The notes under the pieces were generated by a model. It saw only the letters and a list, made by a program, of their open reading frames with translations. It had not been told where the DNA came from and made no database searches. Position numbers and translations under genes: made by a program. A stretch of DNA of 61,229 nt. Source: Flavobacteriales bacterium (GTDB lineage: Bacteria > Bacteroidota > Bacteroidia > Flavobacteriales_F > PHOS-HE28). Positions 9,326-38,500 of this stretch are shown piece after piece; position 1 is the first letter of the stretch; every line of letters begins with the position of its first letter. The stretch is taken from assembly GCA_031371785.1 (NCBI GenBank), contig JANMKC010000122.1:1-61229 (forward strand), in the 5' to 3' direction.

Positions 9326-9448
9326 GCTTCTACCGCAAAGGGCGCGCGGTATGACCATCAGTGGACAATGCGTTGTGCATTTCTCAGCGTTCCCGGTGCC
9401 ATTGCGCCTCTGCGGTGAAGCACCCCGATCCTACCTTCGTAGCCTCGC

Positions 9449-12226
9449 ATGGACAAGTACTCCTATCTGAGCAACGTCGACAGTGCCTGGCTCGACGACC
9501 TGCACCAGCAGTACCAGAAGGACCCCGCCAGCGTGGAGACCGGTTGGGCACGCTTCTTCGAGGGGTTCGAGTTCGCCAAGGCCCTCCACGGTGATGGTGC
9601 TCCTGATGCGGTCGCTGAAGCTTCCGCGAAGGCAAGCGGCGGCAACGAGCGTTTTGAGAAGGAGTTCCGCGTCCTCGAACTGATCAACGCGTACCGCACT
9701 CGTGGCCACCTCTTCACGGACACCAATCCTGTGCGGGAGCGGCGCAAGTACACGCCCACGTTGGAGCTCGTGAACTTCCAGCTCAGCGATGCCGACCTGG
9801 ACACGGTGTTCACGGCCGGCAATGAAGTGAGCATCGGGCCGAGCAAGCTGCGCGACATCGTGGCGCTGTTGGAACAGACCTACTGCGCTAGCATCGGTGT
9901 GGAGTTCAAATACATCCGCAAACCCGAGAAGATCAAGTGGCTGCTGGAGCGCATGGAGAGCACGCGCAACACGCCTTCGTTCACGCTGGATGAAAAGAAG
10001 GAGATCCTGGAAAAGTTGAACGAAGCGGTGGTCTTCGAGAAATTCCTGGGGAAGAAGTTCATCGGCGCGAAACGCTTCAGCCTCGAAGGCGCGGAGGTGC
10101 TGATCCCTGCGTTGGACACAGTGATCGAGCACGGCGCGGACCTGGGCATCACCAAGTACGTCATCGGCATGGCGCACCGTGGTCGCTTGAACGTGCTGGC
10201 CAATACGATGCGCAAATCGTACGACGCCATCTTCAGTGAGTTCGAAGGCAAGGATTACGACGATGCGCTGCTGGAAGGTGATGTGAAATACCACATGGGC
10301 TACAGCAGTTTGGTGAAGACCAACACGGGAAAAGAAGTACGCCTGACACTCGCGCCGAATCCGAGCCATCTCGAAGCGGTGGGGCCGGTGATGCAAGGGA
10401 TCAGCCGCGCGATCATCGAGCACGACGACAATTTCGCGAAGGGTGTCACCGCCCCCATCATCATCCACGGCGATGCGGCGGTGGCCGGGCAGGGCGTGGT
10501 GTACGAGGTGGTGCAGATGGCCGGACTGAAAGCGTACGAGACCGGTGGTACGATCCACATCGTGGTGAACAACCAAGTGGGTTTCACCACCAACTATTTC
10601 GATGGGCGCACCAGCACGTATTGCACGGATGTCGCCAAGACCACGCTCTGCCCGGTGTTCCATGTGAACGGCGATGATGCCGAAGCCGTGGCGTACACCG
10701 TGAAGTTGGCGATGGATTATCGCCAGCAGTTCGCGCAGGACGTGTGGGTGGATATTCTCTGCTACCGGAAACACGGGCACAACGAAGGCGACGAACCGAA
10801 GTTCACCCAACCGCTGTTGTACAAGGCGATCGCTGCGCACAAGGACCCGCGCACGATCTACACCGAGGACCTGATCGCGAGCGGTGTGCAAGGTGCGAGC
10901 GAAATGGCGCAGGAGATGGAAACCTCCTTCACCGAGATGCTTGATGCGCGGCTTACGGAAGCCAAGCAAGTGCGCGTGGGGAAGATCACCAACTTCATGG
11001 AGGAGCGATGGAAAGGCTTCAAGCGCGCCGATGCGAGCGACTTCGCGACCTCCCCCGCAACCGGCGTGAAGAAGGAGGTGCTGAAGATGATCGGCGAGAA
11101 GCTCACGGTGATCCCCGAAGGCAAGCACTTCTTCAGCAAGCTGGAAAAGATCCTGAACGATCGCAAGGAGATGATGGCCAAGGAAACCCTGGATTGGGGC
11201 ATGGCCGAACTGCTCGCGTATGGATCGTTGCTGATCGAAGGGAAGCCTGTGCGTTTTACCGGCCAGGACGTGGAGCGCGGCACCTTCAGCCACCGCCATG
11301 CCGTGGTGCGGTTCGAGGACAGCGAGGAAGAGTTCATCCACCTCAAGCACATCCAGCAGGGGCAAGCGTTGTTGCAGATCTACAACTCCCTGTTGAGCGA
11401 ATACGCGGTGCTCGGTTTCGAGTACGGCTACGCGCTCACGAACCCCGAGGTGCTCACGATCTGGGAAGCGCAGTTCGGTGATTTCGTCAACGGCGCGCAG
11501 ATCATCCTCGATCAATACCTGTGCTGCGCGGAGGAGAAATGGAACACGCAGAACGGCATCGTGCTGTTGCTGCCGCACGGCTATGAAGGGCAGGGTGCGG
11601 AGCACAGCAGCGCGCGCATGGAGCGCTTCCTCAGCAGTTGCGCCGATGGCAACATGGTGCTGGTGAACTGCACCACGCCCGCGAATTTCTTCCACGCATT
11701 GCGCCGCCAGCTCGAATGGAATTTCCGCAAGCCGCTCGTGGTGTTCACACCGAAGAGCTTGTTACGCCATGCGAAGTGCGTGAGCAAACTGGACGACCTC
11801 ACAACAGGTGGCTTCCAGGAATTGATCGATGATGCTTCCGCCGATGCGAAGGAGGTGAGGACGGTGATCTTCACACAAGGCAAGATCCACTATGACCTCA
11901 TCGATCATCGCGAGAAGAACGGCATCACCGATACAGCGCTGGTACGTCTCGAACAATTGCATCCGTTGCCTGTGGAACAGATGCGCGCGGTGATCAGGAA
12001 ATACGCGAAAGCCGAACGTTGCCTCTGGGTGCAGGAAGAACCATTGAACATGGGCGCATGGACCTACATGGCGATGAACTTCACCGACATCAAGTTCGAA
12101 GTGATCAGCCGCCCGGCCAGCGGAGCTCCCGCCACCGGCAGCAGCAAACGCAGTGCGAACCAACAGATCGCGATCATCGAGAAAGCGTTCGCGAAGTCAA
12201 CGTCCACGGTAAACGCGAACACATAG
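9449..12226 (+). CDS. sucA: 2-oxoglutarate dehydrogenase E1 component
   Basis: A 925-aa protein with the characteristic N-terminus ([24 protein letters not shown]), the ThDP-binding region ([13 protein letters not shown]) and HGHNEGDEP. It sits directly upstream of the E2 gene. Confidence 0.97.
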
Positions 12227-12267
12227 ACCTTCCACTTTTTCCACCTCTCCACTTCTTACACTTCGCA

Positions 12268-13539
12268 ATGGCCAACATCGACGTAAAAGTTCCCAGTCCC
12301 GGCGAGAGCATCAGCGAAGTGCGCATCGCGCAATGGCTCGTGAAGGATGGTGATGTTGTAGCCAAGGACCAGGTGATCGCCGAGATCGACAGCGACAAGG
12401 CCACATTGGAGCTGAGCGCCGAGGCGAGCGGACAGATCAAGATCCTCGCGGCCGCCGATGCCACGGTGAACGTGGGCGATGTGGTGGCGAAACTGGATAC
12501 GTCCGTCAGTGTGCCGGTGAAGTCGGCGAAGCCAGTGGAAGCAGTGAAAGCAACAGCCGCAGCGACTTCTGCGAAGGCTGTTCCGGCAACGCCAACCAAC
12601 CAACCCCCGGCCTTCGCCGGGGCAACAACCAACAACCCACTGGCGCATGCCACCCCGGTCGCCAAAGCGATGCTCGATGAGAAAGGAATGAGCGCCGCCA
12701 GCGTGAAGGGCAGTGGCCCGAACGGCAAGATCACCAAGAGCGATGTGGCCGCGTATGTCGCGGGCGGTGTGAAGGTCGATGCTGTCGCGCTCAACGGTTG
12801 GGGCGGCACGCGCAACGACAGCCGCAACAAGATGAGCACGCTGCGCAAGAAAGTAGCCGAGCGGCTTGTCGCAGTGAAGAACCAGACCGCCATGCTCACC
12901 ACCTTCAACGAAGTGGACATGAGCGCGGTGATGGCCCTGCGCGACAAATACAAGGACAAGTTCAAGGAGCAGAACGGCGTGGGTCTCGGCTTCATGAGCT
13001 TCTTCACGAAAGCCTGCACGGAAGCGTTGCGCCTCTTCCCCAGTGTGAACGGTCAGATCGATGGCGAAGAGGTCGTGATGCACGACTATGCCGACATCGG
13101 GATCGCGGTGAGCTCACCGAAAGGATTGATGGTGCCCGTGCTGCGCAATGCGGAGAAGATGTCGCTCGCACAGATCGAAACGAGGATCAAGGAGTTGGCG
13201 GTGAAAGCGCGCGACGGCAAGCTCTCGCTCGATGAGATGACCGGTGGCACCTTCACCATCACCAACGGCGGCGTGTTCGGCAGCATGCTCAGCACGCCCA
13301 TCCTCAACCCGCCGCAAAGCGCCATCCTCGGCATGCACAATATCGTGGAGCGGCCGGTCGCGGTGCATGGTGAAGTGAAGATCCGCCCCATCATGTACGT
13401 GGCGCTGAGCTACGATCACCGCATCATCGATGGCAAGGAGAGCGTTAGCTTCCTGATGGCCGTGAAGCAGATGATCGAGGACCCGAGCAAGATGGTGTTC
13501 GGCGGGAAGGAGCCGGGAGAGGTGTTGTTGGGGTTGTGA
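12268..13539 (+). CDS. sucB: dihydrolipoyllysine-residue succinyltransferase (E2 of 2-oxoglutarate dehydrogenase)
   Basis: The ATG at 12268 gives [24 protein letters not shown]. It has a lipoyl domain with [13 protein letters not shown], an Ala/Pro linker, a peripheral-subunit-binding domain and the catalytic DHRIIDG motif. Confidence 0.95.
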
Positions 13540-13605
13540 GGGGGGCGTTGTTGGACCGATGGGCTGCAACACTCAACTTCGCGGACCGACCCGTTCAGTT
13601 GGATC

Positions 13606-15156
13606 ATGGCCAAACAGTTGAGCATCGAGTTTGAAGTTGCTCCTCAGGTGCTCACCCCTGAGGATATCTATGTCAACGCTGATGTGGGGCTTTTGAAGAA
13701 CCTATTTGAGGACAAACGCTTTGAGCGTAAGAGGGCGAAGTACTCACCTCAAGAACTTGGAGACTACTTCTCGATGTGGGCAAACACCCCTGAAGGTGGA
13801 CTAATCGCTCTGGGGATCGAGGATGATGGCAAGTGGTCTGGATGTGCTGGTCTTTCACAGGGCGAATTGAACGCTCGTGAATCAGCCGGTTCCATTTACT
13901 GTCCAGAAGCAGTTCATCGATCCAAGCGTATCGCATTCGTAAATGATCATGGAAAGCCTGATTTCCTGATCCTCTTCCAAGTCAACTATCATCCGAGCAG
14001 GGTGATCAAGACCTCAGAGGGAAAGGCGTTTGTTAGAATCGCGGATACCAAACACAAACTGCGCACAGAGGAGGAAAGGGACCTCGCACTTGACAAGGGA
14101 CAGATCCAATTTGAGCAAGAGCCCTGTGGGTTGGCCTACCCCGACGATTTTGATAATGCCGCCATCCAAAGATTCTTGACCAGCATACGCAAGGGACGCA
14201 AAGAGTTGGTCGACAAGACGGTTGAAGAAGTGTTGGTTCTCAGGTGTCTCGGACAAATGGTCAGAGGGAAGTTCCGACCAGACTTCGCTTGTGCATTGCT
14301 CTTCGGAAAGCAACCTGACCGGATCATTCCAGGATGCCGTATCCGGTTCTTGAGATTTGATGGCAAAGAGGAGGGTGCCGGGGTCAAGTTCAATGCGACC
14401 AAGGATGAAATCTTCGAGGGCAACATTCCCGATCTACTCCTTCAGGCTGAAAAGGCCCTGGATGGGCAACTCCGGAATTTCGCTCGACTGAACAGCCAGC
14501 AGAAATTCTCGATCATCTCAGAGTACCCAAAGGATGCATGGTACGAGGCTCTCGTGAATGCTCTTGTTCACCGTTCATACGGCAATGGTCAGGTGAACAC
14601 GCCGGTAGCCGTCAAGATGTTCGACAATCGCCTGCTTGTAGAGAGTCCAGGAGGGTTCCCTCCCTTTGTAAGTCCGGACAATATCTATGGGAACCATCGA
14701 CCGAGGAATCCAAAACTGATGGATGCGCTGTACTACATGGAGTATGTCAAGTGTGCCAGCGAAGGAACGCGCCGCATGCGCGAAGCCATGCGCGCTTCCA
14801 ACTTGCCAGATCCGGAGTTCGAACAAAAGCAGATCGGTAGCGCCAGGGTCCAAGTAGTTCTGAAGAACAACGTGGAGCAGCGGAAGGTCTGGATCGATGC
14901 TGACGTGACCGAACTTATTGGAGCGGCGATCGCAGGCGTCTTGGACGAGCATCAGAAGCGCATTGTCAACTATGTTGCCGAGCACTCGGAAATTACTGTG
15001 AGCGATGTGCAGCGAATGACAGGACTCAGTTGGCCAGCAGCTCGTAAGAGGCTTTCAAAGCTCGTGGACCTGCAGATCCTTCAGCATATGCACAAGGCGG
15101 GTAACGTGCGCGATCCTCAAGCGAAGTACGTTTTGAAAGGGAGGACGACGAAATGA
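13606..15156 (+). CDS. Schlafen/AlbA_2 domain plus HATPase_c_4 plus C-terminal winged-helix protein (COG2865-type putative DNA-binding/ATP-binding protein)
   Basis: The N-terminal AlbA_2-like block reads FERKRAKYSPQELGDYFSMWANTPEGGLIALGIEDDG. The HATPase_c_4 signature is EALVNALVHRSY...LLVESPGGFP. The C-terminal wHTH-like segment is RIVNYVAEHSEITVSDVQRMTGLSWPAARKRL. A/T-ending codons are more frequent than in the flanking genes. Confidence 0.75.
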   Translation: MAKQLSIEFEVAPQVLTPEDIYVNADVGLLKNLFEDKRFERKRAKYSPQELGDYFSMWANTPEGGLIALGIEDDGKWSGCAGLSQGELNARESAGSIYCPEAVHRSKRIAFVNDHGKPDFLILFQVNYHPSRVIKTSEGKAFVRIADTKHKLRTEEERDLALDKGQIQFEQEPCGLAYPDDFDNAAIQRFLTSIRKGRKELVDKTVEEVLVLRCLGQMVRGKFRPDFACALLFGKQPDRIIPGCRIRFLRFDGKEEGAGVKFNATKDEIFEGNIPDLLLQAEKALDGQLRNFARLNSQQKFSIISEYPKDAWYEALVNALVHRSYGNGQVNTPVAVKMFDNRLLVESPGGFPPFVSPDNIYGNHRPRNPKLMDALYYMEYVKCASEGTRRMREAMRASNLPDPEFEQKQIGSARVQVVLKNNVEQRKVWIDADVTELIGAAIAGVLDEHQKRIVNYVAEHSEITVSDVQRMTGLSWPAARKRLSKLVDLQILQHMHKAGNVRDPQAKYVLKGRTTK

Positions 15157-15251
15157 AGACTATGTGGACCCCGAACTGGAAGAGGAGTTCAGCACCGGTT
15201 TCAAAGTGCAGGAGTTGCGCATGGTCCGCGAACTATTGAAGCGACACTGAG

Positions 15252-15650
15252 ATGGCCTCCTTGAAGCCTGGAAAGAACATTTCCAAGAGTAGCTTGAAGA
15301 ACAAGCGACCGACGGACCCGATCGACGTGCTCATTCATACGCATCGTCTGCGGATCAAGGACGTCTATTTGGACAAATCGCTCGATCTGCTGTTGCTTGT
15401 GCTGAACAATGGCCAGGTCATCCGATCAGGCATTGAAGAGCACGCTCGTTTGCGCGGTGCTACGCAGTCGCGATTGGAAAAGTGGCAATTGATCGCAGGA
15501 GGCACGGGCCTTACATGGCCCGAATTGGACGAGGATCTTTCGCTGCGCGGGTTCATCCATTCATCTTCCGTGGATCAGGCGGTCCGCTCGCTTGCCGAAT
15601 CCAAGCCGAAGGTCTTGCAAGCGCGGAAGCACCAAGCAAGGAAAGCGTGA
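15252..15650 (+). CDS. DUF2442 domain-containing protein
   Basis: The central part matches the DUF2442 pattern from memory: RIKDVYLDKSLDLLLLVLNNGQV...RLRGATQSRLEKWQLIAGGTGLTWPELDEDLSLRGF. Confidence 0.65.
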   Translation: MASLKPGKNISKSSLKNKRPTDPIDVLIHTHRLRIKDVYLDKSLDLLLLVLNNGQVIRSGIEEHARLRGATQSRLEKWQLIAGGTGLTWPELDEDLSLRGFIHSSSVDQAVRSLAESKPKVLQARKHQARKA

Positions 15651-15697
15651 GCTTCACGCTCTCCCGATAAAATGGAAATCCAAGGCGCCGATACATC

Positions 15698-16453
15698 ATG
15701 GACCAGATCAAGATCACGGTCAGGCAATATCAACGAGCCATCGTAAAGGCCCTGAACTTCCGCCAGATCGAGGTACTGAAGGTCCTCTATTCGTTCCCCA
15801 ATTCTACTGCCACAGCCAAGGAACTGGCGAAGGCCATCAACCCGCACTCGCCGGCACCGATCGTGGCAAACAGGCAGGTAGGCTTAATCGGAAGATCCAT
15901 TGCGGAATATTCGGGCGTCACACTGCCCAGCTATCGGGATAGCAATGAGGATAAGCCCGCATATATCGCCGTAGTTGGGTGGTACGAGACTTCTGGCTGG
16001 GAAATGCAGAAAAATCTCCAGAATGCCTTGCTCGACCTTGAACTGGTCCGTGCGACCGACAGGGGTTCATTTCAACTTGAGCAGCTACCGACGGAGGAGA
16101 TGTTCAACAATGAGCAAGCGTTGCGCGAGGGGAAAGTGGTCATCGTTCATGTGGACAAATACGAGCGGAACAGGAAGGCGCGGGCCAAGTGCATCGAGCA
16201 CTTTGGCATTAGCTGTCAAGCCTGTGGTTTCGATTTCCACATGGCGTATGGAAAGATGGCGGAAGGCTACATACAGGTGCATCACGTTCGCCCCTTATCC
16301 GATGTCAGGAAGGAGTACAAGGTGGATCCCGTGAAGTACCTCATCCCGTTGTGCGCGAATTGTCATTGCACGGTCCATCTGTCAAACCCTGCAATGACCA
16401 TTGCTGCATTGAAGCGGTTGATCAAAAAGGCTGAACGGAGCCAAGCAAATTAA
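15698..16453 (+). CDS. HNH endonuclease, COG3183/McrA-like (putative type IV or stand-alone restriction nuclease)
   Basis: The C-terminal HNH/zinc-ribbon block is YERNRKARAKCIEHFGISCQACGFDF...GYIQVHHVRPLS...LIPLCANCHCTVH. The ~150-aa N-terminal region resembles that of other COG3183 proteins. Confidence 0.8.
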   Translation: MDQIKITVRQYQRAIVKALNFRQIEVLKVLYSFPNSTATAKELAKAINPHSPAPIVANRQVGLIGRSIAEYSGVTLPSYRDSNEDKPAYIAVVGWYETSGWEMQKNLQNALLDLELVRATDRGSFQLEQLPTEEMFNNEQALREGKVVIVHVDKYERNRKARAKCIEHFGISCQACGFDFHMAYGKMAEGYIQVHHVRPLSDVRKEYKVDPVKYLIPLCANCHCTVHLSNPAMTIAALKRLIKKAERSQAN

Positions 16454-16649
16454 GTCCCGTATCTCGCTCAGGCATTCATACCTGGATCGGAAGCTCACCG
16501 CGCCACCACAACCTGTTCTTCAGCACTTCGCGATGGGCAGTGCCCTTCTCCGGGCACCCGGAACAACACAGCGCGTTTCGGACAACACCGGCACCACTAC
16601 ATTGCGCGGCTGATGCGCTTGTTGCGCCGATCAGATCTTCCCCTCCACC

Positions 16650-17573
16650 ATGGCCGACCAGAAAGACCTCGACGCGCATTACACCACGATGGACAAGATC
16701 TTCCGCCTGAGCCTGGGCGAGAAGGGCGGATACAGCGGCGCGCGTTTCGATGGTGACTTCTCCATGACGCTGGAGCAGGCGCAGGAAAAGAAGCACAAGT
16801 TCATCATGGACCATTGCAACATCAAGAAAGGCAGCAAGGTGCTGGACATTGGTTGTGGCTGGGGTGCCTTCATCGATTACCTCAACCATCAGGGCGTGCA
16901 GACCACGGGCGTAGTGCTGGCGAAAGGTCAAGCGGATGCCTGCCGCGCGAACGGGTTGAACGTACACCACATGGATTCCAAGGCGATCAAGCCGGAGACC
17001 TTCGGGAAGTTCGACGCGGTATGCGCGATGGGCAGCCCCGAGCATCTGTGTTCTGTCGAGCAGTTCAGGGAGGGCAAGCAGGAGGAGATCTACAAGGCCT
17101 ACTTCCAGCAGGTGGCGGACCTGTTGCCGATGGGTGGTCGGTTCTACTGCCAGACCATGGTGTTCGGCCCGAACATGGTGAAGTTCGAGGACATCAAGTT
17201 CGGGCAGACCAACGTGTGGAAAAAGCGGAACGACTACAGCGGTGAAGAGCTGATGGACCTGGTGTGCGATGTGTTCCCCGGCTCGTGGCTGCCTTACGGA
17301 AAGGAAGGCATGATCGAACCCGCGAAGGAGCACTTCAAACTCGTCTCCGTGGACAGCGGCCGACTGGATTACATCGAAACGATCCATCGTTGGACCGCGG
17401 CCTTCAACAAGTTCAACCTCCAGAAGTACCTGCTGTACGCAACGCTGATCCCCAAGCTGGCGAGCAGTGATTTCCGCAAGTGGGTGCGCCGATACAAGAT
17501 CGCCCCGAATTTGCAGGTATTCGAGCGGGAGATCTTCGAGCACTACCGCATGGTGTTCGAGAAGGTGGCGTAG
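16650..17573 (+). CDS. SAM-dependent methyltransferase, cyclopropane-fatty-acyl-phospholipid (mycolic acid) synthase family
   Basis: The SAM motif I is VLDIGCGWGAFIDYL, and the layout is CMAS-like (SMTLEQAQEKKHKFIMDHCNIKKGSKVLD; EHL......Y..FFQ). The 366-aa ORF on the opposite strand is antisense noise. Confidence 0.8.
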   Translation: MADQKDLDAHYTTMDKIFRLSLGEKGGYSGARFDGDFSMTLEQAQEKKHKFIMDHCNIKKGSKVLDIGCGWGAFIDYLNHQGVQTTGVVLAKGQADACRANGLNVHHMDSKAIKPETFGKFDAVCAMGSPEHLCSVEQFREGKQEEIYKAYFQQVADLLPMGGRFYCQTMVFGPNMVKFEDIKFGQTNVWKKRNDYSGEELMDLVCDVFPGSWLPYGKEGMIEPAKEHFKLVSVDSGRLDYIETIHRWTAAFNKFNLQKYLLYATLIPKLASSDFRKWVRRYKIAPNLQVFEREIFEHYRMVFEKVA

Positions 17574-17580
17574 CACCCCT

Positions 17581-19369: not shown

Positions 19370-20077
19370 TTACTGCAAAGCCCTCCCTTTCCGTTTGAAA
19401 TGGTCGCTGAACTTCTCCCGCATACGAGCAGCGTGCTCATGCGTGATGAGCTGGTCGTCGAACCGTTTGAGGAAGCTCTTCGGGATGTGCGGATTGTTCA
19501 AAGTGGAACCGCGCGCCATGAGGTATCCCGCGCGCTGCTTGAGGACGGTAAGCATGAATGCCGGTGAGTATCCGCCCGCAACATCCATCGCGGCGCGGTA
19601 CTCTTCCAGCGTCCATTGCTTCTTGTAAAGTCGTTGAGCGTCCGCCAAACTGTAGTTGTCCTTCTCGCCGCAGATCACCGCGAGGTCTTGAAGCGTGAGT
19701 TTGCCTGACGCCAGCGCACCCAGATCGAAGTCGGGCTTGATGTAGCCCTCCACTTGGGCGATCCACGGTTCCATCTCGTCCGGCGTAAGGCAGAGCGTGG
19801 AGAGCAGGCGCGGTTTGCCGCGTGACCCCTCGGTGGAATAGTAGCCGATGACCCAGATCTTCTCGCGCCACTTGCGGATGTGCTCCATGCCCACATCGCG
19901 GGCTGTGGAGATCGAATCCGTCGTGGTGGATTTCACTTCCACTGCCACACGTAGTTTCTTGCTTTTCACGGTCGCCTCGAACCATGCGTCCTCACCTCCG
20001 CGCGAGTGGTCCGGATCCCAGACAAGGTTGAACAGGTTGCAGAGTTCCTGCTCGCGGCTATCGTCTTGAACAGCCAT
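19370..20077 (-). CDS. putative type II restriction endonuclease (PD-(D/E)XK-like)
   Basis: A 235-aa protein encoded 3 nt downstream of the m5C methyltransferase on the same strand. The candidate catalytic motif is D-X15-EVK (GEDAWFEATVKSKKLRVAVEVKSTT). No specific enzyme family was recognised. Confidence 0.6.
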   Translation of the reverse strand: MAVQDDSREQELCNLFNLVWDPDHSRGGEDAWFEATVKSKKLRVAVEVKSTTTDSISTARDVGMEHIRKWREKIWVIGYYSTEGSRGKPRLLSTLCLTPDEMEPWIAQVEGYIKPDFDLGALASGKLTLQDLAVICGEKDNYSLADAQRLYKKQWTLEEYRAAMDVAGGYSPAFMLTVLKQRAGYLMARGSTLNNPHIPKSFLKRFDDQLITHEHAARMREKFSDHFKRKGRALQ

Positions 20078-20080
20078 TGC

Positions 20081-21196
20081 TCACATCATCGCATCGAGTA
20101 TGGACCGCGCGACCCGATATGCGACAGGCGGGCAAACGGAGTTGCCGATCTGGCCAAGCTGTTGGTACACGGCGCCCTTGAATTGCCAATCCGCAGGGAA
20201 TCCTTGCAGCAGTGCGCAATCCTGTACTGACATGCGGAAGTGCCCGTTCTCCGGTGGGAAGTTGCTCGCCAATGTGCGATCGCGTTGCACGCCGTTCGGC
20301 CAAACACGCAAGGCACCCCATGAAGTGAGCGATGCTTTGCTGTTCACCACGCCGGTGCAACTGCGCGGGCCGGTGAACCCGGAGCGCAGTGTGGGCGCGA
20401 TGCCATCGGTGCCGATGTCCGGCAGGCCCAACGCTTCACGAACGCCGATGCAACGCGCTGTCGAGGAACCCGGTTCCGTGGCATGCGTGGCGACAGGGGG
20501 CGCGAAACGGCGATACTCTTCCGCGTTCCGGAAGCCGACGATGAAGACACGCTTGCGCGTTTGCGGCACGCCGAACTGTTCCGCCCGCATGATGAAACGG
20601 TGCAGATGGTACGTTCCGTTCAGCGGTGCTTCGATCGCTTCACGCACGAAATCCTTGAACTTCGGGTCCAGCAATCCGGGAACGTTCTCCGCAACGAACA
20701 CGCGCGGACGGATGGCCAGCACGGCCCGTACGAACGAGGGCCACATGTTCCGTTCATCCTCCGCGCCTCGCTGATGACCGGCGATGGAGAACGGCTGGCA
20801 GGGCGGGCCGCCGTGCAGCAGGTCCACGTCTCCTTTGTATGGTCGCCAATCCACCTGCCGCACATCGCCATCGGCACCCGCATGTATGTTCCACGCCGGC
20901 CGGTTGTGCAGCAATGTTTCGCCACAGATGGAGAGGATCTCGTACGCGGCCGCATGCTCGAAGCCCGCTCGCTCGAAACCCAGATCGAGCCCGCCGCCAC
21001 CGGTGAACATGGACAACGCGCGCAGCCCATGCGCCGCGATCGAGGGCATCAATTGGTTCGGGTCGAAGCGTGGTGTGTTCACCGGATGCACCGCCTCGAT
21101 GGTACCATGCACCAACGCCATCCGCTTTCGTTCGTTCGATCGCTGCGCGGTGCGGCGGTACTCGGCGCGGCGTTCAAGTGTCAGGGTATAGGCCAT
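20081..21196 (-). CDS. DNA (cytosine-5)-methyltransferase
   Basis: All conserved m5C-MTase motifs are present in order: FTGGGGLDLG (I), GGPPCQPFS (IV), ENVPGL (VI), QTRKRVFIVG (VIII), MSVQDCALLQGFP (IX), GNSVCPPVA (X). The listed start at 21247 is a TTG; the first ATG is at 21196. Confidence 0.92.
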   Translation of the reverse strand: MAYTLTLERRAEYRRTAQRSNERKRMALVHGTIEAVHPVNTPRFDPNQLMPSIAAHGLRALSMFTGGGGLDLGFERAGFEHAAAYEILSICGETLLHNRPAWNIHAGADGDVRQVDWRPYKGDVDLLHGGPPCQPFSIAGHQRGAEDERNMWPSFVRAVLAIRPRVFVAENVPGLLDPKFKDFVREAIEAPLNGTYHLHRFIMRAEQFGVPQTRKRVFIVGFRNAEEYRRFAPPVATHATEPGSSTARCIGVREALGLPDIGTDGIAPTLRSGFTGPRSCTGVVNSKASLTSWGALRVWPNGVQRDRTLASNFPPENGHFRMSVQDCALLQGFPADWQFKGAVYQQLGQIGNSVCPPVAYRVARSILDAMM

Positions 21197-21535
21197 GGTC
21201 CAGTTCCACAAAGCCGACGGAAGATCCGTCGAGAGAGCGCCGGACAATGTAGGAACGGGTGGTCGATCCTCTTCCCGATCGCCGGGCTTTCAGAACACAC
21301 TACCCATTCCGCCAGAGCAGTATGCCCAAACCTCAAACCTCGCGCAGGGTATAGCCTCGGACCCTGCGTTCTTTGCTTTCATGGGCCAATGTGGCTTGCA
21401 TAGGCGCATGACCAGTTTGCGCAGGGTCCCTTACTTTGGTGGAACGCACACCATGTTGTGAGATCCTGCGGGAGGAGGACCATCTGCACCGCAGGTCAGG
21501 TGATATCGCGAAGACTGATCAAGTAATAACGAACC

Positions 21536-28547: not shown

Positions 28548-29555
28548 TCAGAAATAACGCGGTGAACGGATGCCTTTCAATTTGTTGCCGAACTCGAAGC
28601 CAAGCATGAACTCGTGGGACCCGCCGCTGTGGTCGTGCAGGATCGAGAGCGGATAGTCGTAAGCGTATCCCACGGTGAGGTCGTTCGTGAGGTTGTACTG
28701 CGCGAGCAGGCCCACCGCATCGGTATGCCGGTACATGGCACCGAGCCAGAACTTCTCATAGAAGAGGAAGTTGGCGGTGAGGTCGAAGCTGATCGGCGCA
28801 CCGTCCACGGCCTTCACCATGAAGGTGGGTTTGAACTTGATGTAGGTGCTGAGATCGAACACGTAGCCCCCGGTGATGAACCAGTGCGCGCGCTGGCCCG
28901 CCTGCCACACAGAGGCCGCCGTGCTGTCCGATATCGACGCGTTCTCGAAGAGTTTCGTGCTCAACATCTTCGGCGTGCTGATGCCGAGGTAGTGGCGCTC
29001 GCCATACCACATGGCACCGAAGCCGAACTGCGGATCGAGCTTCTGCTGCACGTTCTGCTGGAAGACCTGGTCGTTCTGTTCGAGCGGATGCAGCTCCGCG
29101 AACTTTCCTTGGAACAGGTTCATGCCGCCCTTGATGCCGAAGGCGAGCTTGGTGTTGTGGGAGAGGAACATGCGGTAGGCCACATCGACCATGAAGCCGT
29201 ACTGCGTTACCGGGCCATGCTCATCGCGCATCAACGTGCCGCCCACGCCCAGGCTCTCCATGAGGAAGGGGCTATGCACGGTGAGCGTTTGCGTGGTAGG
29301 CGCGCCAGCGAAGCCCACCCATTGGTGGCGGCTCAACGCCTTCAAGCTCACCCGTTCGGCGCTTCCCGCATAGGCAGGGTTGATCGCGAGCAGGTTGAAC
29401 ATGTACTGCGTGAACTGCGGATCCTGCTGCGCGCGGGAAACGTCCGGCAGCATAGTCATCGCGATCAATAGAGGAGCGAAATATCGCGCCCATGCAGCGC
29501 GGGGCCACGCGCCCGCGACGCGTGTATCGCCCAAGGAGAAGATCATGCGTGCCAT
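28548..29555 (-). CDS. PorP/SprF family type IX secretion system membrane protein
   Basis: The diagnostic N-terminal motif after the signal peptide is QQDPQFTQYMFNLLAINPAYAG. The protein is about 335 aa with a beta-barrel-like alternating pattern. Its ATG overlaps the stop of the giant cargo gene by 1 nt (TGATG). Confidence 0.9.
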   Translation of the reverse strand: MARMIFSLGDTRVAGAWPRAAWARYFAPLLIAMTMLPDVSRAQQDPQFTQYMFNLLAINPAYAGSAERVSLKALSRHQWVGFAGAPTTQTLTVHSPFLMESLGVGGTLMRDEHGPVTQYGFMVDVAYRMFLSHNTKLAFGIKGGMNLFQGKFAELHPLEQNDQVFQQNVQQKLDPQFGFGAMWYGERHYLGISTPKMLSTKLFENASISDSTAASVWQAGQRAHWFITGGYVFDLSTYIKFKPTFMVKAVDGAPISFDLTANFLFYEKFWLGAMYRHTDAVGLLAQYNLTNDLTVGYAYDYPLSILHDHSGGSHEFMLGFEFGNKLKGIRSPRYF

Positions 29556-32500
29556 CAGCGTTTCAGGTAGATGTATCCAGTGATCATGTCGTCGCCATTG
29601 CCCAGGTCGAGGACATAGTAGTAGGTGCTTTCGGGCAGTTCCTCGCCCCAGTTCATGTCGCCTTCACTACGGCCGTCCCAGTTGTTGTTGTAGGGGCTGC
29701 GGTCCAGCACCTGGCTGCCCCAGCGGTTGAAGACCTGGAAGGTGTTCTTTGGATAGTACTCCAAGCCCTCGATCACATACGTGTCGTTCACACCATCGCC
29801 GTTCGGGCTGAAGGCGTCGGGGATGGTGAGCTTCGCGCAATCGGTGAGCACCACCAGTATGCTGTCCGATGTCGTCCCGCAAACGCCGTTCACCACGGTC
29901 CACAGGAAGATGTTCTCGCCGAGCGCGAGCTGTGTCACATCCGTGGCGCTGTCCGCCGGGTCCACGATGTTGCCGGATCCACCGATCAACGTCCATGCGC
30001 CGATGGCGGTGTTGGAAAGCAGGGGTACCGCGTGCAATTGTGTTTCGGTGGTGTCCTGGCAATAGCTCTGGTCCGGTCCCGCGTCCGCTGGATGTTCCGA
30101 GGAGTCGAACACGGAGATGATCACCGCGTCCGACGTGCTTCCACACGCCCCGTTATCGATCGTCCACAAGAAGGTGTTCTCGCCAAAGCTGATGTCGGTG
30201 ATGGTGGTGAACGGATCGAGGGGATCGGTGATGGTGCCGCTGCCACTGCCGATAGTCCAAGCACCACTCGCTGGCGGTGTTGGCACGGTGGCGGTCATCG
30301 CCGCATCGCCGTTCGCCGGCACGCAGAATTGCTGGTCCGGTCCGGCGGCGGCCGATGGCGCATTGTTGTCGAAGAGGCTCACCACGATAGTGTCGGAGGT
30401 CAGGCCATTGGCACACGGTCCATTATTGATGGTCCAGGCCAGCACCAGGTTACCGACCCCGATCCCGGTGATGGCCGTTGTCGGTGACGACGGGTCCGCC
30501 AACTGGCCGGTGCCGGTCACGATGGTCCATTGACCGGTGGCCGGTGCGGTTGGGGCATTGCCCGCCATAGCGGTGCCGGTCGTTGGTGTGCATAGCTGCA
30601 CATCGGGTCCGGCGTTCGCGTTCGGCGATGCGGCATTGAAGATGGTGATCGTCAGATCGTCGCTCGTGGTTCCGCACGGGCCGTTGCTGATCGTCCAAGT
30701 GAACACGCTCACACCGACATCGAGATCGGTGATCCCGCTGTTCGGATCGTTGGGATCCGCGATGGTTCCCGTGCCGCTCACGAGCGTCCACGTTCCGCTG
30801 GCTGGATAGGTAGGCACGTTGCCCGCCATCGTTACCGTGTTCGGTTGCGTGGGTATGCAGATCGATTGGTCCGGTCCAGAGCCCGCAGGTGCCGCATTGC
30901 CATCGAACATCTGTATCAGTACCGTATCGGTGGTGGTTCCGCAGGCACCGTTGTCGATCGTCCACACGAAGATGTTGTCGCCCACGGCGATGTTGGTCGC
31001 AGTGGTCTGCGGGTCGCTCGGACCGGTGATCGTCGCACTGCCGCTGATGAGCGTCCAGCTACCGGTGCCGGGGAACGTGGCGGGGTTGCCAGCCATGGTG
31101 GCCGTTGTATTCGGTGTGCAGAACTGCTGATCGGGTCCTGCTGCGGCCGGTGCGGCGGTGCTGTCGAACACCGCTATGTTCACGGTGTCCTGCGAGGGTG
31201 GTCCTTGACCGCACTGTCCGTTGTACACCAGCCATTGGAAGGTGTTGTTGCCGATCGTGAGGCCGGTGATGCTGGCTGTGGGATCATGGATGTCGGAGAT
31301 CACACCGGTGCCGTTGATCAAGGTCCAAGTGCCTTCACCGGGGAAGGTGGGCACGAGCGCTTGCATCGTGGTGGTGGTATCGGGCGTGCAGTGTTCCTGG
31401 TCCGGTCCAGCGTCCGCAGCCGGTGCGGTAGGATCGTAGGTGTACACGAGCATCGTATCCGTGAGCAATCCATTGTTCGGGCAGGGGCCGAGGTCCAGCG
31501 TCCACACGAACGTGCTGATGCCGACGGTGAGATCGGTGATCAGGGTTGCGGTATCGAGCGGGTCGACGATGGTGCCGCTGCCGCTGGCCAAGGACCAGAT
31601 ACCTGTCGCGGGCAATTGCGGTGCTACGCCTTGCAGATGAATGGTGGTTTGCGGCAGGCAGGTTTCCAGGTCAGGACCGGCGTTCGGTGCGCTCGTGCTG
31701 TCGCTGAAGAGGATCACCGTCATGGTGTCCGAGGTGATCGGGTTGTTGCACGGGCCGTTGTTCACCGTCCATGCGAAGGTGTTGTAGCCGATGGTGAGGC
31801 CCACCACTTTGGAACCCGGATCATGCGTATCGGCGAAGAGGCCAGCACCGGAAACCAGCGACCATGTTCCCTCCGCGGGGAAGGTGGGCGTGTTGCCGGC
31901 GAGGTAGATGCTGTCCTGCGGTGTGCAGATCTCCACATCGGGTCCTGCGTTCGCGGGCGGGTTGAACTCGTCGTAGATGAACACGCTCACGCTGTCATGG
32001 CTGATGCCGCAGACGCCGTTCTCGAGCGTCCATACCAGGATGTTCTCACCCACGATGAGGCCGTCAACGTCCGTGGTCGGGCTCGCGGGATCGATGAAGT
32101 TGGCGCTGCCTTGTGCCACGCTCCACACACCGGTACCGGGAGCCGTCGCGTTGTTGGCGGCCATCGTTGTGCTCGTGTTCGGCGTACACTGCGATTGATC
32201 AGGACCCGCTGCGGCGGGCGGCGAGTTGAGGTCGAAGAGCAGGATGCTTGCATCGTCGCTCGTGAGTCCGTTCGCGCAGGGTCCATTGCTCACCGTCCAG
32301 GTAAAGACGTTCACGCCGATACCCAGATCCGTAACGGTGGTGTTCGGATCGCTCGGATCGGTGATCGTTCCTTGTCCGCTCGCCAGTGTCCATGTGCCCG
32401 TGGCTGGGAAGGTGTAAGAACTGCCCGCAAGGGTGGCGCTTGTTACCGGTGTGCAGATCTGCTGATCGGTACCGGCATCGGCCACAGGGTTGTTCACGTC

Positions 32501-35500
32501 GTAGACGAAGATGCTCACGAGGTCCGTGGTCAGCGGGTTGTTGCATGGCCCGTTGCTCACGGTCCATAGGAAAATGTTCTCGCCAATGGTGAGGTTGGTG
32601 ATCGCCGTGTTCGGAACGCTCGGATCGGCGATGTCGCCCGTACCCGTTACCAGCGTCCATGTTCCGGTGGCGGGGAAGGTGATGGCGCTACCGGCCATGG
32701 TGGTGTTCGTGTTCGGTGTGCAGAGTTCCTGATCCGGTCCTGCATCGGCCACGGGGTTCTGGTCATCGTAGAGGAAGATGCTCAGTTGGTCGGTGGAGAT
32801 GCCGCTCTCGCACGGCCCGTTGTTCACCGTCCAGCGGATGATCGTTTCGCCCACGGTCAACCCACTGATCGTCGTGTTCGGATCGTTCGCATCGGCGAAG
32901 GCACCGTTGCCCTGCAGGATCGTCCATGTTCCGATAGCCGGGAAGATCACATTGCTGCCCGTGAGCTGCGCGCTCGTGGTCGGGGTGCAGAGGCTCTGAT
33001 CCGGTCCCGCATCGGCCACCGGGTTGGTGGCATCGAAGAGGAATATGCTCATCGTGTCCGAGGTGAGCGGGTTGGCGCATGGGCCGTTGCTCACCGTCCA
33101 CACGAAGATGTTCTCGCCCACGGTAAGGCCGCTCACCGCCGAGTTCGGATCGCTCGCGTTCGCCACGTTGCCTGTGCCACTGAACAATGTCCAAGCGCCG
33201 GTGGCAGGGAAGGTGATGGGGCTGCCGCTGAGCACCGCATCGCTGGTCGGCGTGCAGAGCTGTTGGTCAGGGCCGGCGTTAGCAACAGGATTTTGGTCGT
33301 CGAAAATGAAGATGCTCACCTGGTCGGTGGTCGGTGCGCCGCAAGGTCCGTTGTCCACCGTCCACTGGAAGATGTTCTCGCCGATGGTGAGCCCGTCAAC
33401 GGCCGAGTTCGGATCGGAAGGATCGGCGATGTTGCCCGTGCCCCCGATCAGCGTCCACGATCCGCTCGCGGGGAAGGTTACTGCCGAGCCTTGCAGGTTG
33501 GTCGTGCTCGTCGGTGTGCAGAACTGTTGATCGGCACCGGCGTTCGCGCCCACGTTGTTGTTGTCGAAGAGGAGGATCGTGACGGTGTCCGAAGTGAGCC
33601 CGTTCGCGCAAGGTCCGTTGCTCACGGTCCATGCGAACACGTTCGCGCCGACGTCAAGACCGGTCACCGAGGAGTTCGGGTCGTTCGCGTCCGCGATCGC
33701 TCCGGCACCGCTCACCAATGTCCATGTGCCTTGTGCGGGGAAGGTGATGGCGCTGCCAGCGAACGATGTGCTCGTGGTCGGCGTGCAGAGGTTCTGGTCG
33801 GGCCCGGCGTTGGCCACCGGGTTGTTCACGTCGAAGACGAAGATGCTCACCACATCGGTGGTCAACGGGTTCGCGCAAGGCCCGTTCGCCATGCTCCATT
33901 GCAGGATGTTCTCGCCGATGGTCAATGCGCTTACTGTGGCGTTCGGGTCGTTGGGATCACTGAAGATGCCGGTGCCTTGCAGTACTGTCCATGTGCCTTG
34001 CGCAGGGAATGTCGCGTTGCTGCCGGCGAGTGTGGTGCTCGTGTTCGGCGTACACAGCTCCTGGTCCGGTCCCGCATCGGCCACCGGGTTCAGGTCGTCG
34101 AAGACGAAGATGCTCACCTGATCGGTCGTGATGCCGTTCGCGCACGGTCCGTTGCTCACGGTCCACACGAAGATGTTCTCACCCACGGTAAGGCCGCTCA
34201 CCGCCGTGTTCGGATCGTTCGCATCGGCAATGATGCCGGTGCCGCCCGCGAGTGTCCATGTTCCGCTCGCGGGGAAGGTGGGTGTGTTGCCCGCGAGGTT
34301 GGTCGTGCTCACCGGTGTGCAGATCTGCTGGTCCGGTCCTGCATCGGCCGCCGCGTTGTTCGCGTCGTAAACGAACACGCTCATCTGGTCGGTGGTGGTG
34401 CCGTTCGCGCACGGACCATTGTTCACGCTCCACTGGAAGATGTTCTCACCCACGGTGAGGCCGCTCACGGATGTGTTCGGATCGTTCGCATCGGCGAATG
34501 TGCCGGTGCCTTGCACGAGAGTCCATGTGCCTTGTGCGGGGAAGATCACGCTGCTGCCTGCGAGCGCGGTGCTCGCGGTAGGCGTGCAGAGTTCCTGGTC
34601 GGGTCCCGCGTTCGCATCGGCGTTGCCGTTATCGAAGAGGAAGATGCTCACCGCATCGGTGCTGCTTCCACACGGGCCGTTGCTGATGCTCCATTGCAGG
34701 ATGTTCTCGCCCACGGTCAATCCGCTCACCGTGGTGTTCGGATCATTCGCATCGGCGAAGGTGCCGCCACCTTGCAACACGGTCCATGTGCCCACGGCCA
34801 CGCCTACGGTGCTGTTCGCAGCGAGCGTGGCGGAAGTGGTCGGTGTACACAACTGCTGGTCGGGTCCCGCATCGGCGGAAGCGGCCGCGTTGTCATAGAT
34901 GTTGATCGTTACCTGGTCGGTAGTGATGCCACCGCAAGGGCCATTGTCCACGGTCCATAGGAACACGTTCGCACCGACACCCAGATCGATGACGGTGCTG
35001 TTCGCCGCCGTGGGATCGCTGATCGTACCGTTGCCGCTCACCAGCGTCCATGTGCCGGTGGAAGGGAAGCTGTAGTTGCTGCCGCTGAGGGTGGCGGTGT
35101 TCGTCGGCAGGCAGAGGTCCTGATCGCTACCGGCATTGGCCACGGCCTGTTGGGCGTCGTACACGAAAATGCTCACCAGGTCGCTCGAACTTCCGCAGGT
35201 GCCATTGTCCAGCGTCCATTGCAGTACCACTTCGCCCACGGCGAAACCATTGGCGGTAGCATTGGGATCGGCGGGATCGCTCAGTGTCACCGTGCCGCTC
35301 ACGACGCTCCAGAAACCGGTGCTCACCCCAGTGGGCGCGTTGCCTTGCAATTGCACGTTCGATCCGATGCCGCACACGCTTTGATCGGAACCGGCGTCGG
35401 CGTTGGGCGCGTTGTCATCGAACACGTTGATCGTTACCTGATCACTGGTGAAGCCTGTGCCGCAGGGGCCATTGTTCACGAACCAGGCGAACACATTGGC

Positions 35501-38500
35501 ACCTATGCTCAGATTGCTTACCGTGGAATTCGGCAGGGTCGGATCGGAGAAGGTGCCCGTGCCGCTCACGGTGCTCCACGACCCGGTGGCCGGGAAGATC
35601 AGCGTGCTCGCCTGCATCACCGTGGTGGTGGTTCCGCAGAGGTTCTGCGTGGGGCCCGCATCCGCATCCGGGGTGTTCGCATCATAAAGGAAGATGCTCA
35701 CCTGGTCGGTGGTGAACGCGTTCGCACAAGGCCCGTTGTCCACGCTCCACACGAAGGTGTTCTGGCCAACGCTCAATCCGTTCACCGTGGTGTTCGGAGC
35801 GTTGGCGTCCTGGAAAACACCGGTGCCCTGTGTCACCGTCCATACGCCGGTGGCGGGGAAGATGAGGCTGCTGCCGTTGAGCGTGGTGGAGGTAGTGGGT
35901 GTACACAGATCCTCGTTCGGGCCAGCGTTCGCCACCGGGTTGTTGAGATCATAGACACTGATCGTCACCTGATCGCTGGAGATCGGGTTGGCGCATGGTC
36001 CGTTGTTCAGTGTCCACTGGAAAATGTACACACCGGGCGAAATGCCGGAGACCGTGGTGTTGGGGTTGGTCGGGTTGGTGATGGTACCGGTGCCTTGTAC
36101 GATGGTCCAGAGACCGGTGGCAGGGAACGTCGGCGTGTTGCCGTTCAACAGCAGGAGCGCTACCGGCGTACACACGGATTGTTCGTTGCCGGCATTGGCC
36201 ACCGGGCTGTTCGGATCGTACACCGTGATGGTCACTTGATCGCTGGTGACACCCGGAGCGCAGGGGCCATTGTCCACCGTCCATTGGAAAACGTTCACGC
36301 CGATGGGGATCCCGAAGGCGAGCGTATTCGGATCGTTCGCATCGGAGAAATTGCCCGTGCCGCTTATCACGGTCCACACACCCTGTCCGGGGAAGATGGT
36401 AGCGCTGCCGTTCAAGGTCACCTGCGCCACGCCATTGTCGGAGCAGGCGCTCTGGTCGGCACCCGCGTCGGCCGCGCTCTGTCCCGCATCATATACATAG
36501 ATGGTCATCGGGTCGCTGCTCACGCCGCAAGCACCGTTGTTGATGTTCCATACAAGGATGTTCGCGCCCACGCCCAAGCCGCTCACGGAGGAGGTGGCGC
36601 TGGTAGCGTTGCCGAACGTGGCGGTGCCTTGCTGCACGGTCCAGGATCCGGTAGCGGGGAAGGTGGGTGCATTGCCCGCGAGTGTGGTGCTGGCCGCATC
36701 ACTGCAGAGGTTCTGGTCGGCTCCGGCGTTGGCCGCTTGTGCAGCGCCGTTGAAGACGTTGATCGTCACATTGTCCGTAGTGGTTCCCGGAACGCACGGA
36801 CCGTTGTTTACCATCCAGCTGAAGACGTTCGCTCCGAGACCGAGGCCGGTGATCTGCGAGTTGGGATCGCTGGCCGTTATGATCGTGCCGCTGCCGCTTA
36901 CGAGCGCCCATGTGCCGGTAGCTGGTGAGGTGAGTGGACTGCCGGCCATCACCGTGCTGGTGATCGGCGTGCAGAGGTTCTGGTCAGGCCCCGCATTGGC
37001 CGCGGGGTTCGCGGCGTCGAACACGAACACGCTCACTTGGTCGCTCGTGATCGGGTTCACACAGGGACCGTTGTCGATGGTCCATTGGAACACGCTCGTA
37101 CCCACGTCGAGCCCCGTTACGGTGGTGGTGAAGTTGTTCGGTGAGGTGATGATCCCGATGCCGCTCACCAAGGTCCATGTGCCGATGGCCGGATAGATCA
37201 CCGGAAGTCCTGATAGTGTGACCGTGTTAGGGAACGTGGGTACGCAGATGCTCTGGTCGGGACCGGCGAAGGCCACATCCTGGCGGTTGTCGTACACCTT
37301 GATCAGCACGTCATCAGTGGTCACCGCACCACAGGGGCCGTTGCTCACGGTCCAGCGGAAGATGTTGTCCCCGATGCCAAGGCCGGTGATCAGGGTAGTG
37401 GGACTGCCATGCGCCACGATGGTGCCGCTACCACTGACCAATGTCCAGTCGCCCGTTGCGGGGAAGATGAGGGAACTGCCCGCCATGTTGGTGCTGGTAT
37501 CCGGGCGGCAGAGCGATTGGTCGGGTCCGGCATTGGCCACCGGGTTGTTCGCATCGAAGAGGAAGATGCTCACCACATCATTGGTGATGCCGCTCGCGCA
37601 GGGTCCATTGTTCACTGTCCAGCGGAAGATGTTCTCGCCGACGATCAATCCGCTTACTGCGGTGTTGCGCAGGTTCGCATTGGCGAAGACGCCTGCACCT
37701 TGCACCACGGTCCACGTGCCGACGGCGGGCGCTATCACGTTGCTGCCTGCGAGCGTCGTGCTGGTTGTCGGTGTGCAGAGGTTCTGGTCAGGCCCGGCGT
37801 TGGCCACCGGGTTGGCGTTGCTGAATACCAGTATGGACACTTGGTCGCTGCTCGTTCCGCAGGATCCGTTGTTGATGTTCCACTGCACGATCACTGTGCC
37901 CACACCAAGACCGGTGAGGGTAGTGGTCGTTGCGTTCGGTGAAGTGATCGTGCCGGTACCGCTGATCAAGGTCCATGATCCGGTGGCGCTACCTATCGGT
38001 GCGTTACCGGTGACCGTGGCGACAGGGCTCGTGGAGCAGACGCTTTGATCCGCGCCCGCATTGGCGGGTTGTGCGTTCTGGTCGAAGATGTTGATCGTCA
38101 CCAGGTCGTTGGTAGCAGCACCGCACGGCCCGTTGATCACGGTCCATCGGAACACGTTCGCACCAACGCCAAGGTTGGAGATCGACGTGGTAGGCGAGTT
38201 CACTGCGGCGATGGTTCCGCTGCCGCCCACGAGGGTCCATGTGCCAGTGGCGGGGAAGATCACGTTGCTGCCCGCCATGGTCGCCGTGGTGAAGGGCGTA
38301 CACTGGTTCTGGTCAGGTCCGGCGTTGGCCACCGGGTTGTTCACGTCGAAGACGAACACGCTCACCTGGTCGCTCGTGGTGCCACAGGGTCCGTTGTTCA
38401 CGCTCCATTGGAACACGTTGTTGCCAACGCCGAGGTTGGTGATGGAGGTGAAGGGCGAAGCGGCCGCAGTGATGGTGCCGCTGCCACTGATCAAGGTCCA

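Follow-up and report, generated by a model that had tools for sequence, protein, structure and literature searches.

Three defence-related genes 3′ of sucB in an uncultured lineage of Flavobacteriales: a probable mosaic of independent single-gene modules

When three adjacent genes of low GC content all belong to families linked to phage defence, do they form one system or have they merely come to lie side by side? This question is raised by a locus in a 61,229-nucleotide (nt) contig of a Flavobacteriales bacterium of the PHOS-HE28 lineage (GenBank assembly GCA_031371785.1, contig JANMKC010000122.1; this whole stretch is hereafter called the window). Three genes on the forward strand lie there between sucB, which ends at 13539 directly 5′ of them, and a backbone gene for a CMAS-family S-adenosylmethionine-dependent methyltransferase (MT; 16650–17573, +). 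We refer to them as g1 (13606–15156, +; 516 amino acids, aa), g2 (15252–15650, +; 132 aa), and g3 (15698–16453, +; 251 aa). An earlier note, made from the sequence alone, had located the three co-directional genes correctly and proposed that they were a single insertion forming a candidate defence locus. We found instead, with a probability that we put at about 0.75, that the trio is a patchwork of three single-gene modules, each independent of the others, piled up in a hypervariable slot downstream of sucB, not a three-gene system.

Contexts of the three genes in relatives

We examined 6 loci with g1 homologs, 10 with g2 homologs, and 5 with g3 homologs, as well as 96 sucB loci. No two of the three genes stood together in any of these approximately 120 related loci (0/6, 0/10, 0/5, and 0/96, respectively). 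The earlier note had named co-occurrence of the genes as neighbours elsewhere as the test of its own proposal, and not one such case was seen. The closest homolog of g1 known here (86% aa identity) follows the end of sucB in locus L001, at the same site as in the window; unrelated genes come after it, and neither a DUF2442 nor an HNH gene lies beside it. In five more distant contexts (L002, L003, L114/115, and L116/117), the g1 homolog is a solo gene. Locus L004, in which the C terminus of SucB is identical to that of the window (41/41 aa) and MT is 91.5% identical, carries a g3 homolog (67%) directly after sucB, without g1 or g2. The four further g3 contexts (L005–L008) had neither g1 nor DUF2442, and a search for a conserved neighbour of the g3 homologs found none; small ORFs upstream of these homologs were tested as DUF2442 candidates and are not DUF2442. 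Homologs of g2 were found just 3′ of sucAB in nine loci (L009–L016), each behind an intact, overlapping DUF4160 gene of 79 aa, and a solo g2 homolog lies elsewhere than the sucAB slot in L017.

The 96 sucB loci came from two surveys. A SucB scan of species-representative genomes gave 80 loci, in which the closest SucB proteins belonged to uncultured Flavobacteriales metagenome-assembled genomes (MAGs; 72–83% identity), followed by Salibacteraceae and Crocinitomicaceae. None of the 80 had g1, g2, g3, or DUF4160 within 10 kb of sucB, the distance examined. A metagenome scan for the core of the sucB tail gave 16 loci, none with any gene of the trio. In addition, the relatives nearest to the window (L004, L110, and L107) lack g1, and MT is 89–93% identical in relatives that lack the trio. 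In L110, a gene for a 140-aa membrane protein stands alone between sucB and MT, which bears out the view that the slot is an insertion site.

The trio also differs from its surroundings in composition, as had been noticed before. The GC content of its 2.9 kb is 0.525, the lowest of 584 sliding windows (mean of the 61-kb window 0.599, SD 0.019), and this rank indicates that the dip is not due to chance. The GC content at third codon positions (GC3) is 0.59, 0.68, and 0.67 in g1, g2, and g3, respectively, compared with 0.74–0.84 in the flanking genes, and A/T-ending codons are correspondingly more frequent. Low GC3 was likewise found for the homologs of g1 and g3 in their own hosts (0.64 versus 0.81–0.84 in L001; 0.57 versus 0.75 in L004), which supports mobility of these genes.

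PADLOC 2.0 detected no multi-gene system matched by two or more of the trio proteins, and g2 matched nothing, in line with the earlier remark that the trio is not known as a named system; NCBIfam had no match for g1, g2, or g3. The window contains no detectable tRNA gene, and searches for direct or inverted repeats flanking the trio and for terminators gave no insertion boundary. No Bacteroidota-type −7 promoter motif (TAnnTTTG) was found upstream of any of the three genes. On the 3′ side, the spacer at 16454–16646 has no homolog in any relative, and homology to the backbone upstream of MT restarts at 16647.

Internal junctions and a broken toxin gene

The first reading had overlooked two short features, a truncated DUF4160 gene in the g1–g2 spacer and a 21-nt piece of the sucB tail at the end of g2; judged from the alignments with relatives, both internal junctions of the trio are truncation scars. 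At junction 1 (15148–15164), nucleotide homology to the L001 counterpart of g1 runs out at approximately 15147, and homology to the DUF4160–DUF2442 cassettes begins at 15165. The spacer frame that ends at the ATG of g2 encodes ...DPELEEEFSTGFKVQELRMVRELLKRH*DGLLEAWKEHFQE and corresponds to residues ~38–79 of the DUF4160 proteins of relatives (tblastn E 4e-23, 72% identity to the intact 79-aa proteins of L009–L014). This DUF4160 (DhiT-type toxin) pseudogene (15165–15292, +) is 5′-truncated, with codons ~38–79 left, and overlaps the start of g2 as in the intact pairs; it contains an in-frame TGA at 15248–15250 and has lost the N-terminal part with the HVHV motif. A Pfam scan of the 37-aa spacer translation alone gave nothing, and the remnant was recognised only by tblastn with the intact DUF4160 proteins of relatives. 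The ratio of nonsynonymous to synonymous substitution rates was 0.13–0.14 between the remnant and intact copies and 0.14 between intact copies. The equal values indicate purifying selection over almost all of the divergence, and the truncation is thus recent.

The product of g2 is a DUF2442 protein (PF10387, E 4e-10) with full-length homologs of 60–80% identity in Flavobacteriales MAGs, including P0188 (77%), which is paired with DUF4160. The earlier expectation that DUF2442 usually pairs with DUF4160 was correct, and the broken partner lies in the g1–g2 spacer. In Dickeya dadantii, dhiTA has been validated as a toxin–antitoxin (TA) pair whose toxin, DUF4160, is encoded by the leading gene (PMC8198452; see also PMC12065111). 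Relatives carry an intact pair of these domains 3′ of sucB, likewise with overlapping genes and the toxin gene in front, whereas in the window the toxin gene is 5′-truncated and carries a stop codon and the antitoxin alone is intact. Because its toxin gene is truncated and interrupted, the g2 locus is no longer a TA system, and g2 is an intact DhiA-type antitoxin gene that has become an orphan. The sequence shows it to be what remains of a DhiT/DhiA pair resident in the slot of relatives, left behind when the 5′ half of the toxin gene disappeared and a stop arose in the rest.

Junction 2 involves the sucB tail, defined by blastn and alignment of its copies as the last ~110–116 nt of sucB, ending exactly at the stop codon (13425–13539, +). 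The stub at the end of g2 (15634–15654, +; 21 nt, GCAAGGAAAGCGTGAGCTTC...) equals the first 21 nt of a tail copy that stands at full length after DUF2442 in relatives. Immediately after it, the sequence switches to the g3 segment.

The slot downstream of sucB

The slot behind sucB is hypervariable in this clade of uncultured Flavobacteriales. Its content changes in almost every relative examined (~11 different contents), with the 140-aa membrane protein, a Y1 transposase, DUF4197, DUF2809, and type IX secretion system proteins as examples. In three lineages (L009–L016 and L019), extra direct copies of the sucB tail are present, so that the tail recurs 2–4 times. The copies lie before and after the DUF4160–DUF2442 cassette in L009–L012, after the cassette and again 4 kb further in L013–L016, and 1.1 kb 3′ of sucB in L019; the repeat regions span L009:3137–4925, L011:121–1909, L013:4625–9490, and L019:1830–3198. 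They are 84–97% identical to the native tail, and their left ends cluster at the imperfect palindrome AAGGAGAGCGTGAGCTTCC. A folding test of the tail revealed no unusually stable hairpin (z −1.6 to +0.3).

The elements e14 and phage 21 integrate at the 3′ end of a housekeeping gene, icd of Escherichia coli, and leave a displaced copy of that end. Direct tail copies bounding the cassettes are the pattern expected from repeated integration within the 3′ end of sucB, the old tail being displaced downstream each time, and thus suggest serial integration at this site. As in icd, the inserts of relatives are bounded by direct copies of the gene end (~110 nt), each reaching the stop codon, and sucB therefore stays intact. 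Unlike e14 and phage 21, the cassettes are tiny (0.7–4 kb) and follow one another in tandem, none of the slots was seen to hold an integrase, and the window keeps one copy only as its 21-nt stub.

The sole mobility gene noted in the slots, in a search that was not exhaustive, encodes a Y1 (IS200/RAYT-like) transposase of ~205 aa, located directly after sucB in five loci (L009:3368–3988; L011:352–972; L019:2409–3026; L098:1393–2010, reverse strand; and L012:126–452, truncated). It is flanked by palindromes resembling repetitive extragenic palindromic (REP) sequences (CAGGCG-NNN-CGCCTG), which were found only in these loci. The window lacks this palindrome, indicating that the Y1 element was not involved there. 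Tandem cassettes bounded by sucB tails, found without an integrase and often headed by Y1 and REP-like hairpins, might be imagined as an undescribed integron-like capture site of which the trio is a degraded array, an idea that we consider quite doubtful. If it were true, such a site would recombine at a housekeeping gene's 3′ end and collect small defence or TA modules. The tail-bounded arrangement in relatives is the only potentially new aspect of the locus, the modules themselves being of known kinds, and the tail repeats could serve to find further cargo in the slot.

Two further differences between the window and its relatives were observed around the slot. A gene for a repetitive PKD/CHU_C-type giant protein of 4119 aa lies 14 kb away in the window in inverted orientation (29555–41914, −), whereas the giant-protein gene of L001 (4114–11702) lies ~2.4 kb 3′ of the g1 homolog in direct orientation; these positions imply that the region was inverted or rearranged, with a break where g1 ends. 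In addition, DUF4197, whose gene borders the slot in many relatives, is missing from the window.

Predicted activities of g1 and g3 and the alternatives

The domain assignments made earlier for all three proteins, namely AlbA_2/Schlafen, HATPase_c_4, winged helix-turn-helix (wHTH), DUF2442, and HNH, were retained in Pfam searches, with every match above the gathering score. The g1 protein contains SLFN_AlbA_2 (PF04326; residues 35–152, E 2e-7, 31.8 bits against a cut-off of 25.3), HATPase_c_4 (PF13749; residues 332–409, E 3e-16), and HTH_24 (residues 446–490, E 8e-7). Its Ex4ExK catalytic motif (E35-x4-E40-x-K42) shows no variation among 45 homologs and is conserved to at least 95% among 120, and the GHKL residues E314, N318, P348, and G349 are likewise invariant. 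With PADLOC, g1 matched only the first ~390 of the 1121 positions of the "pAgo" (SLFN-pAgo) model (E 3e-42). An AlphaFold 2 (AF2) model of g1 had a mean per-residue confidence (pLDDT) of 84, and Foldseek matched it over its full length to 3LMM (E 1.5e-23). The N-terminal part of the model resembled the nuclease domains of SLFN11/13/14/5/12 (SLFN11/14/13/5 at E 2e-5 to 3e-3), the middle domain weakly matched the histidine-kinase-type ATP-binding domains of DesK/AdeS/PDK4 (E 6e-3 to 1.4e-2, probability 0.47–0.92), and the C terminus matched MarR-type wHTH domains. We concluded that g1 is a stand-alone prokaryotic Schlafen (pSlfn) of the commonest prokaryotic class, combining SLFN_AlbA_2, a GHKL ATPase, and a C-terminal wHTH.

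A "HisKinase-HTH" class accounts for 19.2% of 5,930 pSlfns (PMC13056530), and 58.6% of 103,533 prokaryotic SLFN proteins carry GHKL, a class named "Schlatpase", here with a short C-terminal HTH (bioRxiv 10.64898/2026.05.29.728809). With this class g1 shares PF04326, PF13749, and HTH, the Ex4(E/D)xK motif, and the GHKL ATP-binding residues, as well as being stand-alone, having no fixed partner, and being horizontally mobile. Phage defence and tRNA cleavage have been demonstrated for other pSlfn fusions (PMC13056530), and the SLFN-GHKL module of SLFN-pAgo is an ATP-gated tRNase (bioRxiv 10.64898/2026.05.29.728809). The characterised pSlfns differ from g1 in having Ig-like, DUF262, or Argonaute sensors. 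By analogy with the characterised relatives, g1 may be an ATP-gated tRNA nuclease acting in abortive defence: binding of ATP to the GHKL domain would drive oligomerisation and activate the SLFN nuclease, the assembled nuclease would cleave tRNA and shut down translation during phage infection, and the C-terminal winged helix could be a nucleic-acid sensor or an autoregulator. The locus presents, in the setting of a clear hotspot, a representative of the bacterial Schlafen class (SLFN-GHKL-HTH) that is the most abundant but functionally still unproven.

The g1 family is very large (>1,600 matches), with full-length homologs of ~50% identity in many phyla. Scans of viral contigs with g1 and g3 returned no close relatives, and a search of phage GenBank entries with both proteins gave distant matches only (27–30% identity). 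Among them are full-length SLFN-GHKL-HTH proteins resembling g1 (27–28% identity) in actinobacteriophages, such as gene 31 of Mycobacterium phage Squirty (NC_026588.1); Gordonia phages Nymphadora, BatStarr, and others (gene 38) also encode distant proteins of this type. The actinobacteriophage proteins are annotated as "DNA helicase" or "hypothetical protein".

The g3 gene encodes a stand-alone HNH enzyme of the McrA type whose N-terminal domain is distinct. The protein matched HNH (PF01844, E 5e-5) in Pfam, only mREase_IV (E 3e-6) in PADLOC, and EcoKMcrA (PDB 6ghc, E 3.7e-4) over g3 residues 83–235 only. Its HNH domain, a ββα-Me motif with a Cys4 zinc site, contains the invariant residues C173, C176, H195, H196, C219, N221, C222, H223, and H227. 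Its model shows two confident domains, N-terminal winged-helix-like (1–125) and C-terminal McrA-type HNH/Zn, with a disordered linker between them. Thus, g3 shares with EcoKMcrA and type IV HNH enzymes the two-domain layout, the C-terminal ββα-Me HNH with Cys4 zinc, and the lack of a cognate methylase; unlike EcoKMcrA, its N-terminal domain has no detectable similarity, by sequence match or Foldseek, to the 5-methylcytosine (5mC) reader of that enzyme. No cognate DNA methyltransferase adjoins g3 in the window or its homologs in L004–L008, and a type IV-like, modification-dependent role is therefore our best guess. The N-terminal domain most likely would read DNA, probably modified, and the HNH domain would then cut, as in type IV restriction. 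The family is small (66 matches), and g3 brings to notice a small McrA-type HNH group with an uncharacterised N-terminal reader. In L006 (1–8809), the g3 homolog (49% identity) lies directly 3′ of a complete type I restriction-modification (R-M) system (HsdM/S/R) and 1.6 kb 5′ of a second small HNH gene, which is a defence-island context for the g3 family.

How firmly can the locus be read as three modules that arrived or fused through separate recombination events? Several observations weigh against it. The contexts sampled for each gene are few; the three genes may be co-transcribed, as they are co-directional, separated by short gaps (95 nt between g1 and g2 and 47 nt between g2 and g3), and without a predicted terminator between them. 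No sucB-tail copy follows g1 in L001 or g3 in L004, so that the integration model is conjectural for these two modules and their arrival is inferred, and no integrase occurs among the called genes of L009–L016, in a search that was not exhaustive. As to function, HisKinase-type pSlfns, the GHKL class of g1, failed to protect E. coli from the phages of the one published screen (PMC13056530), and ~30% of pSlfns lie away from known defence genes. For the g3 N-terminal domain, Foldseek gave nothing significant, only a vague winged-helix resemblance, which makes the modification dependence of g3 a guess. The proposal of one new three-component system inserted as a unit draws on the shared direction, tight spacing, common low GC, and lack of terminators, and on the fact, rightly pointed out in the earlier note, that each family is linked to phage defence or TA biology. 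It is nevertheless very improbable, given that the genes are never neighbours in the related loci, that relatives have either g1 or g3 by itself at this site, that both junctions are truncation scars, one destroying the natural partner of g2, and that PADLOC recognised no system. The mosaic reading removes this false lead, and the locus illustrates how genes in a defence hotspot can look like an operon-like system through mere adjacency and a low GC in common. There is likewise very little to be said for the view that the extra sucB-tail copies are metagenome assembly artefacts and no signature of integration. All the loci do come from metagenome assemblies or MAGs, and strain mixtures with different post-sucB cassettes could mislead assemblers; however, the arrangement recurs across independent samples and assemblers (4 ENA samples, 4 NCBI MAGs, and 1 GTDB representative), the copies vary in their starting points, are joined to sequence from outside sucB (the 3′ end of DUF2442), and have diverged, and the window carries a matching stub at the homologous position.

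The alternatives for the single genes deserve somewhat more weight. A resident DNA-binding regulator, as in the old COG2865 "transcriptional regulator" reading, with a housekeeping reason for standing after sucB, would fit the C-terminal wHTH of g1, its same place in two diverged genomes, a huge and broad family whose members are often solo among ordinary genes, and the failure of HisKinase-class pSlfns to protect. We consider it rather unlikely because the nuclease and ATPase motifs do not vary among homologs, the gene has an atypical GC3 in either host and is missing from the closest relatives, and the corresponding SLFN-pAgo module is a tRNase. It is also unlikely that g3, instead of being a type IV enzyme that depends on modification, is an HNH nuclease of a selfish or homing type or a restriction enzyme of the conventional, sequence-specific kind. 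Homing enzymes often have HNH domains, the N-terminal domain differs from the 5mC reader of EcoKMcrA, and distant homologs occur in phages; on the other side, g3 interrupts no gene, none of the five contexts has an adjacent DNA methyltransferase, McrA and type IV models give the best matches by sequence and profile, and the L006 homolog stands beside a type I R-M system.

A weak PADLOC "mad2" match had made MT a candidate partner of g3; it was rejected, MT being a CMAS-family backbone gene conserved (89–93%) in relatives without g3. Elsewhere in the window, a C5-cytosine DNA methyltransferase gene (20081–21247, −; Pfam E 4e-58; PADLOC MTase_II/DruM) adjoins an ORF of 235 aa (19370–20077, −) that has no match in Pfam, PADLOC, or PDB. 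The two (19370–21247) are probably a type II R-M pair, 3 kb from g3, and a cytosine methylase so close by raises the question of self-compatibility if g3 targets 5mC. Long antisense ORFs at 9431–11695 (−), 12174–13083 (−), and 16476–17576 (−) overlie sucA, sucB, and MT; such ORFs commonly arise where GC3 is high, and these are not genes.

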